A DNA stretch of 64,000 nucleotides, taken from NCBI GenBank assembly GCA_030426465.1, contig JAUHYK010000008.1, positions 4,756-68,755 on the forward strand, written 5' to 3'. A program made the position numbers and the translations under genes. Positions 4,549 to 58,541 of the stretch are shown piece by piece; within the stretch, counting starts at the first letter, position 1; the number at the start of each line of letters is the position of its first letter. The notes under the pieces were generated by a model that made no database searches, was not told the DNA's origin, and worked only from the letters and a program-made list of their open reading frames with translations. Source of the DNA: Alphaproteobacteria bacterium (GTDB lineage: Bacteria; Pseudomonadota; Alphaproteobacteria; Caulobacterales; Parvularculaceae).

Positions 4549-4897
4549 GACAGAAATTCCTTTTTTGTTATGGCTACTGAAGAGCCCGCGACTGTGTGTT
4601 GAGCGGTGCTTGAGATTGCGCTCTCAGCCCAAAGATCAGCCTGCCGGATATGCACACCGGCAGGCGATCAGTCTCCCCCAAGTTTTGTAGTGTTAGATTA
4701 GCGCTATCAGCGAATGCCAGTTGCTGAAGAATCGCGAATTGTTCGGGTCGTCATCATCTAATGCGCCTGAATCTACGTAAAGGCAATCGAATTTCCGTAT
4801 ACGAAATATATTTTCGCAATATTAATATCCGTTGACGGCATGCGCTGATAAGACATGAAGGCGCAAGTGACTAAATTAGCAACATAGGAGATTTTGC

Positions 4898-33005: not shown

Positions 33006-33230
33006 TTATTTGTCTTGCTTTTGTGTATTCGGAACATGAACGAGTATGTCGCCGGGTTGGCAGTCTAACACCTCACAGATCTTGTCCAGGGTTTCAAACT
33101 TCACGCCCTTCATGGAGCCTGATTTTAACTTCGATAAATTCGCCTCGGTGGCGCCAATGGCGGTCGCGAGGTCTTTCGATTTCATTTTTCGCAAGGCTAG
33201 CATCACATCCAGCCTGATGACGACCGTCAT
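33006..33230 (-). CDS. Cro/C1-type HTH regulator (YozG-like), module 1
   Basis: RLDVML, ANLSKLKSG, FETLDKICEVLDCQPGDIL. Confidence 0.9.
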   Translation of the reverse strand: MTVVIRLDVMLALRKMKSKDLATAIGATEANLSKLKSGSMKGVKFETLDKICEVLDCQPGDILVHVPNTQKQDK

Positions 33231-33242
33231 GCTCAACGCGCC

Positions 33243-33770
33243 TTAAAGATATTGCTCGGTTTCGGTTTTGTAGCGTTCGGCTTCGATCAGCACAAACGAG
33301 ACAACGAGAAAAACGCTGGCCGTAAAAACCAGCGCCATGTGCTCGGTGTTTATGTTGATATGGGTCCAGAACGGGGCGTCGTGTTCGCCCATAGCCCAGC
33401 GTCGCGCGCCTGATGTGATAATGTCAAAGGTAACAGCGACCATGGTGAACAGCGAGAAGGCGCGCAAATGGCGGGCGGTCCGCCCGTCGACAAATTCACC
33501 CTTATGAAAATGGCGGAACAACCGGTGCAGCCGGTATAGCGCGTAAAGCCATGCGGCGGTTGAAGGAACGCCCACGAGCAGGCCCAATAACCGCGCCCCT
33601 TCGCGCGGCGGCGCTTCAGCGAGCACCAGTGTGTTATCCCAGAAATTATAGCTGCCAAATCCCCAATAGGTGACCGGCATGGCAATGGCGAGGAAGGCGA
33701 TCAGCGGAATCAGCCAGAGGAATGCGAGGCTCGTCCGTTTCAGCCAGACGTGAGTGCTTGACATGGCCAC
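33243..33770 (-). CDS. DUF2975 membrane protein (YoaS-like), module 1
   Basis: About four TM segments; LHRLFRHFHKGEF..RTARHLR; C-terminal EAERYKTETEQYL; precedes HTH. Confidence 0.8.
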   Translation of the reverse strand: MAMSSTHVWLKRTSLAFLWLIPLIAFLAIAMPVTYWGFGSYNFWDNTLVLAEAPPREGARLLGLLVGVPSTAAWLYALYRLHRLFRHFHKGEFVDGRTARHLRAFSLFTMVAVTFDIITSGARRWAMGEHDAPFWTHININTEHMALVFTASVFLVVSFVLIEAERYKTETEQYL

Positions 33771-33791
33771 AATCTTTCCATATTCAATAAT

Positions 33792-33814
33792 AAATTATCG
33801 AAATTAGATAATTT
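33792..33814. promoter_or_regulatory. Operator-like inverted repeat AAATTATCG-AAATT-AGATAATTT
   Basis: AT-rich palindrome between divergent DUF2975 and CPBP genes; same TTATCG-W5-CGATAA consensus as 55821-55863. Confidence 0.65.
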
Positions 33815-33881
33815 TATATCTGTTTTTGACATTGGCGCGCCTCAGGCGGCTTGGCAAGCCCCAGCGTGGTGGAGGGCTGTG

Positions 33882-34625
33882 ATGGAGCTTATACTGACGC
33901 TGGTCCTCTGGTGGGCGCCGGTCATCGTCCTGGCGCTGGTGTTTCGCGCGGTGGGGCTTGCCGGTTTCCGGCCAGGCTGGTTTCTCACGGCGATAGCCGT
34001 TTATGGCCTCTACATGATCGCCATTTTTAAAGGCGGCGCGTTGATTTCCCTCGATCAATATTTCGAAGGGCTTCAGTGGAATTGGGGCGGCAAGATCGCG
34101 TCGATCGCCATGACCGTGGCTGTGTTTGCGGTTCTGGCGATGACAACAAAGTCGGTTTCCCGAGAAAGCGCCGGGTTCACTTTGCGCCAAAACCCGGGTT
34201 CCGTTGTTCCTGCCTTAATCGCCACTGTCTTGCTGGCGGCAAGTGGCATCGGGCTGGAGTTCCTCGGCGCCGACGGCCCGTCCATGGATCCTGAGCGTCT
34301 CGCCTATCAGGCGACGATGCCGGGGCTTGATGAGGAACCGTTTTTCAGGGGAGTATTTCTCGCTGTTCTGGCGGCGGCCCTGCCCTCTCGCGGGCTAAGC
34401 CTTCTTCGCGCTCGGATCACGGGCGCCGGGCTTTTGATGACCCTTCTCTTTGGCCTCGGCCATGGGGTTGGGATTGAGGACGGCAAGCCGTTTATCAGCT
34501 GGATTTATATCGTTGTGACCGGCTATCTCGGCTTCGGCCTTCTCTGGATCCGCGAGCGCACGGGCAGCGTTTTATTGCCCATTCTGGCGCATAACCTGAT
34601 TAACTTTTCGGGGTCCTTTTTCTAG
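33882..34625 (+). CDS. CPBP/CAAX (Abi) intramembrane metalloprotease
   Basis: EEPFFRG, LFGLGH, ERTGSVLLPILAHNLIN. Confidence 0.9.
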   Translation: MELILTLVLWWAPVIVLALVFRAVGLAGFRPGWFLTAIAVYGLYMIAIFKGGALISLDQYFEGLQWNWGGKIASIAMTVAVFAVLAMTTKSVSRESAGFTLRQNPGSVVPALIATVLLAASGIGLEFLGADGPSMDPERLAYQATMPGLDEEPFFRGVFLAVLAAALPSRGLSLLRARITGAGLLMTLLFGLGHGVGIEDGKPFISWIYIVVTGYLGFGLLWIRERTGSVLLPILAHNLINFSGSFF

Positions 34626-54410: not shown

Positions 54411-55190
54411 TCACTGGGCGGCGGCGGCCTGTTCCGCAAGCTCGATTGTGTGGTCAAGGAGCTCCCGTCCGCCCATGGGCCCGTGAGACGGGATGACAAT
54501 CTCTGCTTCCGGAAAAGCCTCAGCAACATTCCTGACGGCTTCAGCCCAGTGGCTTACATCGCCATCAGCCGTGTTGCCGAGATTTTTGGATTCGCCGGGC
54601 CGAATGAGGCATCCGCCAAACAGCACTTTCGCCGGTGCGTAATAGACGACGATATTGTCGCGTGTGTGGCCAGCGCCGGGGTAATAAATTTCGTAATGAT
54701 GGTTCTGCGAGTGGGTGGTAATGACTAGCTGCGTCGCCCCTTCCTCCAACGCCAGGCTTTTTTTTGCAGGGCTCAGACCGCGCGCAGGCGCATCTTCGTT
54801 GGAAAACTGGTGCGCGATGGTTTCTACGCCATGAGCATGAAGCGCGCTCATGCCGCCCATCTTGTCGCTATGCGCGTGCGTAACGATGGCTGTCGAAGGC
54901 AGGCCGCCAGTTTCCGATTCGACTAGATTGAGTAGCGCTTCCGTTTCTTCGTCGGTCCATGCGGTGTCTACAAGAATGACACCCTTATCTGTTTGCACAA
55001 CAAGTCCCTGCGACAGGACAAGCCCCCAGCCGCTGACATAATCATAGCTCTTGTGAATCCAGACATTGTCGGCGATTTTTTCCAGCGACGGCGCGGGCAG
55101 CGCTTCGGCGGTTTGGGGCGTTTCTTTATTGGTCGCGCAAGCGGCCAGAGAAACGAGCGCAAGAGCGGCGAGAAAACTTCTAAACATCAA
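54411..55190 (-). CDS. Subclass B1 metallo-beta-lactamase, NDM-like lipoprotein
   Basis: [41 protein letters not shown] give all six B1 zinc ligands; lipobox LAAC. Confidence 0.9.
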
Positions 55191-55795
55191 AAATGCGCTT
55201 TCATCAGTTTACGGAATGCATCCGCGCGGTGGGAGATGTCGTGTTTTTCGTCCGGCTCCATTTCCGCAAAGGTGACGTGATAGCCATTCGGGACGAAGAT
55301 CGGATCATAGCCGAAGCCTTTCTCCCCGCGCGCCGGAAAACAAAGAACGCCTTTGACATCGCCTTCAAAAATTTCCGTGTGCCCGTCTGGCCAGGCGAGG
55401 CAGAGGGCGCAGACAAATTTCGCCGAAAAGTCCTCCGTGCCGCTGTCAAAGAGCGCGGATTCCACCTTTTTCATCGCGGCGTCGAAATCCCGGGGCTCGC
55501 CCGCCCAGCGGGCCGAAAATATCCCGGGTGCGCCGGAGAGCGCCGTTACGGCGAGGCCACTGTCATCGGCCAGCGCCGGCAGGTTTGCGGCCTTCGCGGC
55601 GGCAAGCGCCTTCAATTGGGCGTTCTCAGCGAAGGTCGTTCCGGTCTCTTCAGGGTCTTCAAGGCCAAGTTTTTTTGCGGAGATCGCCTCAATGCCGAGC
55701 GGGGCAAGTAATTCATTGATTTCTTTTACTTTTCCATCGTTGTGAGAAGCGATGACGAGGCGTCCGGGCCCTAATTTCCGCACATTCTCGCCCAT
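55187..55795 (-). CDS. rdgB: dITP/XTP pyrophosphatase (HAM1)
   Basis: [40 protein letters not shown] 55795 (the ORF-track 5' extension is spurious). Confidence 0.96.
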
Positions 55796-55820
55796 GTTTT
55801 TATCCCTTATCGAAAAAAAA

Positions 55821-55863
55821 TTATCGTTTTTCGGCAAAAACCACTTGCATTGTTTTTCGATAA
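55821..55863. promoter_or_regulatory. Two TTATCG-T5-CGATAA-type boxes (55821-55837, 55847-55863) plus half-sites at 55807 and 55872
   Basis: TTATCG-TTTTT-CGGCAA and GCATTG-TTTTT-CGATAA; same consensus as 33795-33811. Confidence 0.65.
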
Positions 55864-55872
55864 GTCTATATC
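55845..55872 (+). promoter_or_regulatory. sigma70-type promoter of the leader-micropeptide-DUF2975-HTH unit
   Basis: TTGCAT-N16-TATATC. Confidence 0.55.
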
Positions 55873-55878
55873 GATAAT

Positions 55879-56163
55879 CAACAAGACGGTGATCAACGCC
55901 GCAAGCACAGGACCCCGGGCTCGGAGAAATACCAGACCCTGGGTGAAAAGAAAAAGGCCGAAAAGACCGGGCGAACCGGCGAAAAGAGCCAAAAAGGAGA
56001 AACCCGGGGAAAGGTCGGCCCCGCCCGAGAAAAAGGGAAAACCGGCCAAACAACAGGGCCCGAAAGGCCCAAATAGCAGCCCGAAAAAAAAGAGCGGCGG
56101 AAAAACCGCCGCTCAAGAAGATCAAAAACGAGCCGCTAACACAGGAAAGAAAAGGAGAAACCC
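55879..56163 (+). ncRNA. Candidate structured, almost U-free leader RNA or ncRNA
   Basis: 11 T and ~117 A in 285 nt; at least five GC stems with A-rich or GAAA-type loops; 14-nt direct repeat AAAAGGAGAAACCC at 55992 and 56150. Confidence 0.6.
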
Positions 56164-56298
56164 ATGCGCTTTGCTAACTCAAACTCAAGTTTCGATAAAT
56201 TTGGCTACTTTGTCAATGGACTGGCCGTATTCCTGACCATTTCTGTCATCGCCGCCGGCTATGTCTCGGCGATCGGCTCCTTCGCTGGGGTGGCGTAA
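56164..56298 (+). CDS. 44-aa single-TM micropeptide [44 protein letters not shown] (not in ORF track)
   Basis: AAGGAG SD, in-frame stop upstream at 56137, TAATG coupling to the next ORF. Confidence 0.7.
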
Positions 56299-56453
56299 TG
56301 TCCAAACTTTTCCACAGAACGGCGGCGGCGGTGTTCGCCGCCTTCGCGGCGGCGAGCCTTTACTCCCTCGCCGTCGCCTCGCCCGCCGAGAGCGGGGCTG
56401 ACGACGCCCGGCAAAGCTGCGAAAAAGCCTTCTGCCTGATCGCCCTGTTCTAG
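56298..56453 (+). CDS. 51-aa secreted micropeptide [51 protein letters not shown] (not in ORF track)
   Basis: TAATG overlap; Sec-type signal peptide; C-terminal CxxxxC. Confidence 0.65.
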   Translation: MSKLFHRTAAAVFAAFAAASLYSLAVASPAESGADDARQSCEKAFCLIALF

Positions 56454-56506
56454 GGGCCGGGAAGGCTTTTTCGATTGCTCATGCTCACCAAGACGGAGAT
56501 TTCAAT

Positions 56507-57019
56507 ATGCGCGCGATAGGCAAAGGATCGCTATCGTCGATTCTCGCAGTCGGCCTTCATGTCACGCGCGTGATCTTGTGGATCATGCTGGGCCTTGTGA
56601 CCCTTGCGCTGATCATTCTGCCCTTTGCGCCGGCTATCGCAGATCTTTTTTCGCACTCCGACGGGATCAATATTGATGGCGTCGTCGATGCTGAAGACTT
56701 CATCAAGGTCTCCTACGCCTTTGTCACAACGGCAGTGATGTTGTTTGTCGTGAACCGCCTCCTGGAAATCCTAAAAGCGCTGCGGTTCGGATCGCCTTTT
56801 GTCAAAGAGAACGCCGACCGGTTTCGCGGCATTGGCTATGCGCTCCTGATGGGAGAGGGCGCCAAATTCGCGTTCGGTTTTTTGTCGCTGATCTTTGACG
56901 CCGATGTTGAGCTCAACATGACGTTCCTCGCCTGGCTCGCAATCATCACCGTGTTCGTGCTTGCGGAAGTGTTCCGCGAAGGCGCGCGCATGAAAGAAGA
57001 ACAGGACCTCACCGTTTAA
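56507..57019 (+). CDS. DUF2975 membrane protein, module 2
   Basis: TM segments, GSPFVKENADRFR, AEVFREGARMKEEQDLTV; TAATG-coupled to HTH. Confidence 0.9.
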   Translation: MRAIGKGSLSSILAVGLHVTRVILWIMLGLVTLALIILPFAPAIADLFSHSDGINIDGVVDAEDFIKVSYAFVTTAVMLFVVNRLLEILKALRFGSPFVKENADRFRGIGYALLMGEGAKFAFGFLSLIFDADVELNMTFLAWLAIITVFVLAEVFREGARMKEEQDLTV

Positions 57020-57243
57020 TGTCGATTTCCGTCAAACTTGATCGGGTTTTGCTCGACCGCGGCATGTCGCTGACGGAGCTCTCCGAACGGGTGGGCGTGA
57101 CGATCGCCAATCTTTCCATTCTCAAAACCGGCAAGGCGAAAGCGATCCGCTTTTCGACGCTTGAAGCTATCTGCAAGGAGCTAGATTGCCAGCCGGGGGA
57201 TATTCTTTTCTTCGACGATGACGGCAAGACAACCGCTGATTAG
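57019..57243 (+). CDS. Cro/C1-type HTH regulator (YozG-like), module 2
   Basis: KLDRVL, TIANLSILKTGKAKAIRFSTL, CQPGDIL. Confidence 0.93.
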   Translation: MSISVKLDRVLLDRGMSLTELSERVGVTIANLSILKTGKAKAIRFSTLEAICKELDCQPGDILFFDDDGKTTAD

Positions 57244-57248
57244 CCAAC

Positions 57249-58541
57249 CTATTGATACGGCGCCGCGGCGGGGTCGCTGGTCGCTTCTTCCGGAACGTCC
57301 TCCGCATGGGGCGCGATCGCTGCGCCGACCTTCCGGCTTCTCCAGACAAAAACAAGCAAGAATATCGCGAGCGTGGTCGACAGGATGAACGGCGCCTGCG
57401 GCGTGTGGGCGTAAAGCCAGAAAGCAATGGCCGGCGAGACGATAAAGCCCGACGCTGTCGCTGCGCCGGCAAGGCCAATGGCGCCGCCCTGTTCATCAGG
57501 CTCGACAGCAAGGGAGGCGGCGGCGGTCACTGCGGGGAACGCCATGCCCGATCCGAGACCGCTCGCCACCATGCCGAGAACCACGGGCCAGAGGTGATCG
57601 GACAGAAGGATTGTCAAATGGCCAGCAATCATCAGCGCCGGGGCGATGCGCATGAGCCGCGCCGGGGAAAGACGCAGACGCTGCACGATCACGAGCTGCG
57701 CAAAGAGCGAGGCCATGGCGCCGGCGGTCAGCCCGATGCTGACATACGCGGGCGCCTCGACGGTTGAATAGCCGAGCCGGTCGATAAAATAAAACGCGAT
57801 AGTCTGGATCGGAATGGCGTTGATGACGGAGAAAGTCAGCGCCGTGATGAGGAAGGCTGTCAGGCGTTCATCACCGAGCTTGACGCGTTTTCCATGCTTG
57901 CGCTGTGTCGGCCCGGTGCGTTCCGGAAGGAAGGCGAACACCGCGAGCATCATCACGAAGCCCAGCGCCGAGGCGGCGAAAAACGGAACGATGCGCCCAA
58001 GAAGCGACGCCGCCGCGCCGAAGCCGGGGCCGAGCATGGCGCCGAAGCCGAACGCTGCAGAAAATCCGGCGATGCCCGCGGTGCGGTCATGCTTTGAGGT
58101 GCGGTCGGCGATATAGGCTTGCGCGGCCGGGGGCCCCGCGGAGCCGACAAGGCCGTAAATGCTGCGCGTCGCCACCAGAAGCAGATAAAGCGGCAGGCCG
58201 GAAAAAGCGCCCGCGAGCCCGAGCATGATGGAGCCGCCGAAAAGCGACATGGACACCGCATAGCCGATCATGCCGACCAGGATAAACGGCTTGCGGCCTC
58301 GCTGGTCGCTCATCCGCCCCCAGATCGGTCCGGTGAAGACCCAGGCGGTGGCCGAGACAGCGAAGATCGCGCCGACCTGAAAATTCGACAGGCCGATTTC
58401 CCGCGCCAGCGGCGGCAGAACTGAAAAGACAATGGTCTGGCCCATGCCGGCGCAGACGGCGCCCACCAAGAGGAGCGCGATGGCGATCCTGCGTTGTGTG
58501 GCGGTGGTCGCGCTCGCGGCCGGCGGCGCTGATGAAGTCAT
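57249..58541 (-). CDS. MFS transporter (DHA1/TetA-like)
   Basis: WGRMSDQRGRK motif A; 12 hydrophobic segments. Confidence 0.92.
   Translation of the reverse strand: MTSSAPPAASATTATQRRIAIALLLVGAVCAGMGQTIVFSVLPPLAREIGLSNFQVGAIFAVSATAWVFTGPIWGRMSDQRGRKPFILVGMIGYAVSMSLFGGSIMLGLAGAFSGLPLYLLLVATRSIYGLVGSAGPPAAQAYIADRTSKHDRTAGIAGFSAAFGFGAMLGPGFGAAASLLGRIVPFFAASALGFVMMLAVFAFLPERTGPTQRKHGKRVKLGDERLTAFLITALTFSVINAIPIQTIAFYFIDRLGYSTVEAPAYVSIGLTAGAMASLFAQLVIVQRLRLSPARLMRIAPALMIAGHLTILLSDHLWPVVLGMVASGLGSGMAFPAVTAAASLAVEPDEQGGAIGLAGAATASGFIVSPAIAFWLYAHTPQAPFILSTTLAIFLLVFVWRSRKVGAAIAPHAEDVPEEATSDPAAAPYQ

Follow-up and report, generated by a model that had tools for sequence, protein, structure and literature searches.

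YoaS and YozG are the Bacillus subtilis names for a membrane protein with the domain DUF2975 and for a small regulator with the helix-turn-helix (HTH) domain HTH_26. An operon of these two genes, equipped with an AT-rich inverted-repeat operator, has been described across phyla (bioRxiv 10.64898/2026.09.15.751765), and an Xre/YoaS-like pairing was listed in a survey from 2009 (PMC2701414). In the literature searched, no function was found for the YoaS-YozG pair in any organism. We have analysed a locus of this kind in a member of the Parvularculaceae (Caulobacterales), located on contig JAUHYK010000008.1 of assembly GCA_030426465.1; the 64,000 nucleotides (nt) from position 4,756 to 68,755 of this contig are referred to as the window, and all positions count from the first letter of the window. 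The locus shares with the YoaS-YozG operon both Pfam domains, their order and strand, the overlapping stop and start codons and the AT-rich inverted-repeat operator upstream. It differs by two extra small genes (here named p44 and p51), by a U-depleted leader of 285 nt, by a probable antisense small RNA (sRNA), and by the divergent gene rdgB, which is conserved in this place across the whole order. On balance we regard it as probable that the locus is a family-specific elaboration of the YoaS-YozG operon, in which autorepression by the HTH protein is combined with two small proteins, a U-depleted leader and a cis-antisense sRNA over the start of p44. The operon type itself is already known, and what is new here is the probable antisense sRNA, by which a stretch that an earlier note on this DNA had described as one 'U-free RNA' is divided between the two strands.

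The features of the locus, in order of position, are:

55187-55795, minus strand: rdgB, Ham1 family (E = 7e-63)
55796-56163: intergenic region of 368 nt between rdgB and p44
55807-55812 and 55821-55826: operator half-sites TTATCG, read from the sequence and found as inverted repeats
55844-55849 and 55866-55871, plus strand: candidate sense promoter, CTTGCA and CTATAT with a 16-nt spacer, read from the sequence and conserved
55858-55863 and 55872-55877: operator half-sites CGATAA, read from the sequence and found as inverted repeats
55879-56163, plus strand: T-poor (U-depleted) non-coding leader of about 285 nt
55887-55901: hairpin H1 (CGGTG-loop-CGCCG), directly after the inferred transcription start
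56180 to 56084, minus strand: predicted cis-antisense sRNA of about 97 nt (+1 G at 56180), consisting of 5' stem-loop, U-rich linker and T1
56114 to 56092 (hairpin) and 56091 to 56084 (U8), minus strand: intrinsic terminator T1, from a terminator scan
56164-56298, plus strand: p44, protein of 44 amino acids (aa) with one transmembrane helix, Shine-Dalgarno AAGGAG
56216 to 56211 and 56193 to 56188, minus strand: candidate antisense promoter, TTGACA and GAAACT with a 17-nt spacer and 7 nt to +1
56298-56453, plus strand: p51, protein of 51 aa, hydrophobic and signal-like at the N-terminus and C-x4-C-hydrophobic at the C-terminus, overlapping p44 in TAATG
56507-57019, plus strand: DUF2975 (YoaS-like) membrane protein (Pfam PF11188, E = 8.4e-12, 45.6 bits against a cut-off of 27)
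57019-57243, plus strand: YozG-like Cro/C1 HTH protein (HTH_26) of 74 aa (Pfam PF13443, E = 1.8e-21)
57249-58541, minus strand: convergent gene for a major facilitator superfamily (MFS) transporter

All the parts that the earlier note had listed are real, lie where it had placed them and are conserved, and they make up one unit, in which a promoter covered by the operator is followed by a long leader, structured and non-coding, by the two small genes, which are genuine, and by DUF2975 coupled to HTH. According to the model favoured here, the HTH protein would bind the four half-sites, which cover the -35 and -10 elements, and repress its own promoter. The transcript, as comparison between species indicates, would carry the structured, U-depleted leader followed by p44, p51, DUF2975 and HTH. 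From the opposite strand, a promoter placed by the same comparison in codons 9-18 of p44 would give rise to the antisense sRNA, whose body would be perfectly complementary to codons 1-6 of p44, its start codon, its Shine-Dalgarno sequence and about 50 nt of the leader, and which would end at a hairpin-U8 terminator that had been taken for a part of the 'U-free RNA'. Pairing at the start of p44 should block the translation of p44 and, via coupling, also that of p51, and the duplex of sRNA and mRNA would probably trigger cleavage. The dose of the small membrane proteins could in this way be set independently of the autoregulation by HTH.

The 3' end of the predicted sRNA is formed by a GC hairpin (56092-56114) which is the most conserved element of the leader. 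On the minus strand its 9-bp stem, with eight GC pairs, runs into U8 and has the form of an intrinsic terminator, a form that it lacks on the plus strand, where AAGAAGAUCA comes next. The tract of seven to nine U, which reads as A7-9 on the plus strand, is invariant across all 29 loci. In many species the fold is up to 9-10 kcal/mol more stable on the minus strand, since A.C mismatches of the plus strand are there G.U pairs, and of the alignment cells of T1, 97.6% pair on the minus and 85.9% on the plus strand. The geometry of the candidate antisense promoter predicts an RNA of 97 nt, reaching from 56180 to 56084 and thus spanning the promoter-distal 80 nt or so of the leader and the first 17 nt of p44. 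Its 5' stem-loop, found by RNAalifold on the minus strand, has a 5' arm that is the complement of p44 codons 1-6 and a loop, UUUCUCCUUUU, that is the complement of the Shine-Dalgarno sequence. The predicted sRNA folds with z = -4.31; the RNAalifold consensus energy is -14.4 on the minus and -8.6 on the plus strand, and the mean z of the single sequences -5.4 and -3.4, respectively. An alignment of 47 sequences from five genera gave standard pairs in 92.4% of the cells on the minus strand against 77.7% on the plus strand, and strand-specific wobble in 114 G.U against four A.C cells. Compensatory changes on both sides were seen in 11 of the 18 pairs, none of 500 shuffles attained the observed values, and slid controls of the alignment paired to 33-59%. 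With a covariance model of the sRNA, exactly one copy per genome was detected, in 27 of 28 genomes of the genus and in six of the family's 13 genera; at every locus that was read, this copy is encoded opposite to the operon. Among the known RNA families compared, which included mmgR/suhB (RF00519), no family of Rfam 15 reached its gathering threshold, the best match (24.9 bits against 41) aligning only with the terminator hairpin and the U-run.

The candidate promoter from which this RNA would be transcribed lies within the coding sequence of p44. The motif TTGTCAA is invariant within p44 and a pattern A..TC is kept despite amino-acid changes, as is GAnnnT, which occurs in all species, even where the amino acids differ. 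The complete arrangement TTGACA-N17-GAnnnT-N7/8-GAGU, in which GAGU provides the stem-loop's first base pair, was seen at every locus read. Among the 329 codons of the four genes, degenerate codons with third positions that are at least 97% invariant are found only at codons 5, 16 and 17 of p44, with codon 10 of p44 at 0.967. The fact that these invariant third positions coincide with TTGACA-N17-GAnnnT suggests that the promoter is kept by a constraint on synonymous sites. The sRNA may thus possess a promoter of its own, conserved in this manner although weak in its -10 element.

Some points weigh against this reading. The candidate -10 sequences (GAAACT, GACATT, GATGTT) match TATAAT at three of six positions. 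The covariation counts were taken from an alignment fitted to the minus-strand model, which favours that strand, and the minus strand is rich in U and G, which makes chance G.U pairs easier. The evidence from covariation and pairing for the minus strand is consequently considered strong but not conclusive. The antisense RNA also leaves the U-depletion of the approximately 200 nt upstream of the terminator unaccounted for, and the role of the terminator could instead be to halt transcription that runs on from the convergent MFS gene. This last point leads to the foremost rival explanation, which is rather unlikely but has a real chance of being correct. It holds that there is no antisense gene and that T1, H1 and some U-flanked hairpins form a polar terminator zone, which would stop minus-strand read-through, from MFS or from spurious antisense starts, before it enters the operator and promoter and the rdgB operon, while sense transcription passes since the plus-strand RNA is without U-tracts. 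Indeed, the stop codons of HTH and MFS are 5 nt apart (57243-57249) with no terminator in between, so that each transcript must run antisense into the other gene, and T1 is the first terminator-like site that the minus strand meets after the MFS stop. In a simple scan of 29 leaders, all 49 terminator-like sites fell on the minus strand, and H1 is followed on this strand by a conserved UUGUUGAUUAU. However, such a zone explains neither the synonymous-site constraint that spells TTGACA-N17-GAnnnT within p44 nor the minus-strand-specific 5' stem-loop upstream of T1. It is further at odds with the middle hairpins, whose A-runs on the plus strand stand 3' more often than 5' (14 against five of 25), and with the middle part of the leader as a whole, for which the plus strand is the more structured one in 17 of 21 species. 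The related idea of tandem minus-strand terminators along the leader was rejected, as the A-runs are more often on the wrong side and the middle part is the more structured on the plus strand.

The leader in which these elements are embedded is exceptional in composition. It has 11 T in 284 nt, and its 250-nt minimum of 3.6% T, compared to a window mean of 20.9% (standard deviation 3.9), is the lowest in the 64 kb. It is the sole long non-coding stretch poor in T or A found in the 4.4-Mb genome; the other such stretches are mostly coding, many of them for low-complexity proteins rich in Lys and Ala. Long T-free coding stretches at C30:7811-8139, C45:19862-20079 and C107:80169-80395 specify Lys/Ala/Thr-rich repeat proteins of the AKKAAKKK type, resembling the tails of histone H1. 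In 29 orthologous loci the leader has 2-12% T throughout and a length of about 130-280 nt. The possibility that it encodes a Lys/Pro-rich protein was discarded, and the leader is taken to be non-coding, because indels of 1 and 2 nt separate close species; nor is a start codon conserved. The whole leader of this genome folds with z = -4.54 on the plus and -3.4 on the minus strand. The region from H1 to the A-run consists of G-C stems in variable succession, capped by A-rich loops and joined by A-rich linkers, and its plus-strand z, calculated against dinucleotide shuffles, is the lower one in the 17 of 21 species noted above (mean -2.3 against -1.5 on the minus strand). Being more structured on the plus strand, this part is best read as a structured 5' untranslated region of the operon mRNA. 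H1 is conserved across genus and family with changes on both arms, and its wobble pairs fall on either strand depending on the species; with wobble evidence in both directions, H1 was dropped as a plus-strand 5' hairpin.

The 'U-free RNA' of the earlier note is hence a mosaic of two strands. A T-poor, structured leader does exist, yet it is not one plus-strand RNA, as its 3' part has a minus-strand-specific structure and a terminator. Likewise, the proposed RNA layer of control probably exists, most likely as a cis-antisense sRNA over the start of p44 rather than as a plus-strand riboregulator. Three ideas remain for the avoidance of U in the leader: it may confer resistance to RNase E, it may keep start and stop codons away from several Shine-Dalgarno-like motifs, or it may create a direction-specific barrier, where sense transcription passes GC hairpins and antisense transcription meets hairpin-U sites. 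A bolder and rather doubtful proposal is that the leader represents a new kind of functional RNA or DNA element, 130-280 nt long, held at 2-8% U across the family and made up solely of G-C stems and A-rich linkers. It would be direction-specific and devoid of start codons, stop codons and RNase E sites, and jointly with the antisense sRNA embedded within it would gate the membrane signalling module of small proteins, DUF2975 and YozG. Other candidates were rejected. Phased A-tracts, indicative of DNA curvature, have a significant periodicity of 10-11 bp only in the clade of this genome and a few others and not genus-wide. Antisense decoys, i.e. leader copies of the p44 translation start, were found only in the same clade and two other species. 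A pairing of the leader 5' end with GCCGCU near the Shine-Dalgarno sequence, given by RNAalifold for close relatives, has a 3' arm that is unconserved in other clades. In this genome the ribosome-binding region of p44 (56150-56163) has an exact copy of 14 nt (AAAAGGAGAAACCC) further up in the leader, at 55992-56005, with which the antisense RNA could pair as a second site.

At the promoter-proximal end of the intergenic region, four TTATCG/CGATAA half-sites lie inside 71 nt (55807-55877) of a stretch with 34% GC, the one at 55821-55826 belonging to TTATCG-T5-CGGCAA. Only two clusters of four such half-sites exist in the 4.4-Mb genome. The half-sites are nearly invariant in 29 loci of the genus and are kept in other genera of the family, as are the first 95 nt or so of the intergenic region, which are almost invariant. 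Orthologous loci in other families of the order have TATCG-N5-CGATA or TTATCGATAA palindromes upstream, and a paralogous DUF2975-HTH pair at 33 kb in the window is preceded by TTATCTAATTTCGATAA, with the same half-site. The two CGATAA sites occupy the spacer and the start region of the candidate sense promoter. The alphaproteobacterial promoter consensus is CTTGAC-N17-CTATAT, and the call of the sense promoter rests on its likeness to this consensus and on conservation; a stricter scan for promoters of the E. coli type returned none. Sense transcription would start near 55878-55880. A half-site also lies 12 nt from the rdgB start codon (the one at 55807), where no convincing separate rdgB promoter was found, and for this reason the rdgB operon may be under the control of HTH as well. 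When a regulon was sought with TTATCG-N5-CGATAA and up to two mismatches, the result was too noisy to be used.

The two small genes, which have no match in Pfam or NCBIfam, are both under selection as proteins. The length of p44 is 44 codons in all 30 loci, and its identity at the three codon positions is 0.80, 0.89 and 0.65. That of p51 varies from 47 to 54 codons in the 30 loci, with a conserved C-x4-5-C-hydrophobic tail and codon-position identities of 0.71, 0.79 and 0.53. These profiles identify p44 and p51 as genuine genes under purifying selection, and the one-base overlap between the stop codon of p44 and the start codon of p51 is present in 29 of the 30 loci. Related transmembrane open reading frames (ORFs) of 35-47 codons with an invariant Asn precede DUF2975 in several other lineages of Caulobacterales. 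The distribution of p51 is narrower, as it occurs in two other genera of the family and is absent from two family genera that keep p44. In one locus of another family genus (L157), p44 is followed by a plus-strand hairpin with a U-rich tail (CAGGGTGGCC...GGCCACCCTGTTTCTTCT) and p51 is absent, a sign that p44 of this genus may have an attenuator or a transcript of its own.

The small proteins invite comparison with MgrB, a small membrane protein that modulates the membrane sensor PhoQ. The likeness lies in a size of 40-50 aa, a single transmembrane helix and a gene beside, or controlled by, the signalling system; the candidate partner here would be DUF2975 with a one-domain repressor and not a histidine kinase. 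Rather than being diffusible signals, p44 and p51 most likely serve the presumed sensor DUF2975 as accessory subunits in the membrane. The opposite had been proposed in the earlier note, namely a peptide-responsive membrane one-component circuit where p51 is secreted, perhaps processed by a CAAX protease, and sensed by DUF2975 controlling HTH, with riboregulation added by a plus-strand U-free leader. This explanation is improbable. It can point to the hydrophobic N-terminus of p51, to an AVA-SP motif in this genome and the conserved C-x4-C tail, as well as to the conserved coupling of DUF2975 and HTH and to the half-site upstream of the paralogous pair. However, an A-x-A motif is found in many orthologues but not all and is thus unconserved across the genus, and profile searches at the locus returned no peptide-binding receptor domain, exporter or known RNA family, so that the view of p51 as a secreted signal peptide is not upheld. 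The absence of p51 from two genera with p44, and distant relatives that run DUF2975-HTH without any small ORF, speak against the circuit as well. The link to a protease fails in a test of co-occurrence: the paralogous module (33006-34625), in which the second DUF2975-HTH pair faces a CPBP protease, is found in 12 of 37 genomes of the genus, compared to about 36 with both small genes, and the closest relatives, with p44/p51 loci that are 96-98% identical, lack it. The best NCBIfam match of this protease is Sphingomonad CPBP (159 bits against a cut-off of 225), and it has a weak similarity to myxosortase-type proteases.

The predicted sRNA has its closest counterpart in loci of the hok/Sok type, with which it shares a short antisense RNA with a promoter inside the target and a 5' stem-loop and intrinsic terminator, overlapping the translation start of a peptide of less than 60 aa with one transmembrane helix. 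In contrast to these, the locus studied here is single-copy, chromosomal and vertically inherited with no sign of mobility, and its target heads a regulatory operon of four genes. That p44 and the antisense RNA are a pair similar to type I toxin-antitoxin systems, with a membrane-damaging p44 held down by the sRNA, is very improbable. The size of p44 with its single hydrophobic helix and an RNA that covers its translation start would agree with such a pair. Type I toxin-antitoxin loci stand alone and are often multi-copy or mobile, though, while this element has one copy per genome at one syntenic site across the family. Moreover, p44-like ORFs precede DUF2975 across the order even without the terminator or the antisense signature, and p44 is coupled to three further genes. 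The least probable reading, that the helix at the p44 start is a cis-acting translational gate, formed by the plus strand around the Shine-Dalgarno sequence and AUG, with the conserved p44 nucleotides as its downstream arm, draws on a leader structured as a whole and on the same Watson-Crick pairs being present on both strands (GAG of the leader pairing with CUC of codons 5-6), but it founders on the stem-loop cells, which pair to 69% on the plus against 87% on the minus strand with 67 G.U against one A.C cell, on the plus-strand RNAalifold structure, which retains only the base of T1, and on the invariant TTGTCAA and the A-run, for which it has no role. An anti-phage defence system was also considered and rejected, since defence models gave nothing beyond a generic HTH.

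The locus as a whole is stable within the genus. An orthologue of DUF2975, whose protein has by eye about four hydrophobic segments, is present in 36 of the 37 genomes, and 29-30 loci share the order rdgB, divergent p44, p51, DUF2975 and HTH, followed by the convergent MFS gene; these loci keep the array complete, with the two small ORFs and the T-poor leader. The start codon of HTH overlaps the stop codon of DUF2975 in TAATG (57017-57021). The divergent arrangement of rdgB and DUF2975-HTH recurs in three other families of the order, where 16 loci have it, and also in many named records of Caulobacter, Phenylobacterium and Hyphomonas. In some lineages of Caulobacterales the intergenic region between rdgB and DUF2975-HTH is about 100 nt long and lacks both leader and small ORFs. 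Since these distant members keep the pair without them, the leader and the small ORFs are lineage-specific additions to a working core, and p51, T1 and the T-poor leader are restricted to the family of the window. Relatives having DUF2975-HTH without the upstream elements, which the earlier note had named as part of the case against its proposal, thus exist among distant Caulobacterales; the genus keeps the full array. The HTH protein is 65-85% identical across families, compared to about 30% for DUF2975, and 66-77% identical to proteins of Firmicutes and Bacteroidota. This cross-phylum identity fits a small protein that is constrained on all its surfaces. A search of solved structures returned only a generic small HTH (3tyr) and nothing for DUF2975.

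Variations on the arrangement occur in several lineages. About one-third of the genus (L010, L011, L014, L020-L025 and L030) has a second, diverged DUF2975 gene between the first DUF2975 and HTH. In four loci of Erythrobacteraceae (L071, L088, L100 and L118), DUF2975-HTH is preceded by unrelated small ORFs of 42-46 aa, with an N-terminal helix and a VTVPP motif, two of them in tandem at one locus; a Shine-Dalgarno sequence and then TCGATAA stand directly before their ATG. Four loci from a high-GC genus of the same order (L035, L037, L038 and L045) contain a strong conserved GC hairpin (CCGCGTG...CACGCGG) without a U-run, located between a small transmembrane ORF and DUF2975. On the other side of the locus, an ORF of 259 aa (54411-55190, minus strand) lies between rdgB and a hemW-like radical-SAM gene, its start overlapping the rdgB stop; it has a lipoprotein-like N-terminus (LAAC) and a motif of the metallo-beta-lactamase HxHxD type (HAHSDKMGG).

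YoaS-YozG occurs across bacterial phyla, and the lineage studied here provides testable handles on this functionally uncharacterised pair. The operator half-site is defined (TTATCG), and there are two small membrane proteins, conserved but of a kind often overlooked by gene callers. To these come a probable antisense RNA, the promoter of which would be written in the synonymous sites of a 44-codon gene, and a leader whose composition was not found in other non-coding regions of the genome. In combination, these handles could reveal the way in which a membrane protein and a one-domain repressor are coupled, and how an RNA may set the dosage of small proteins.

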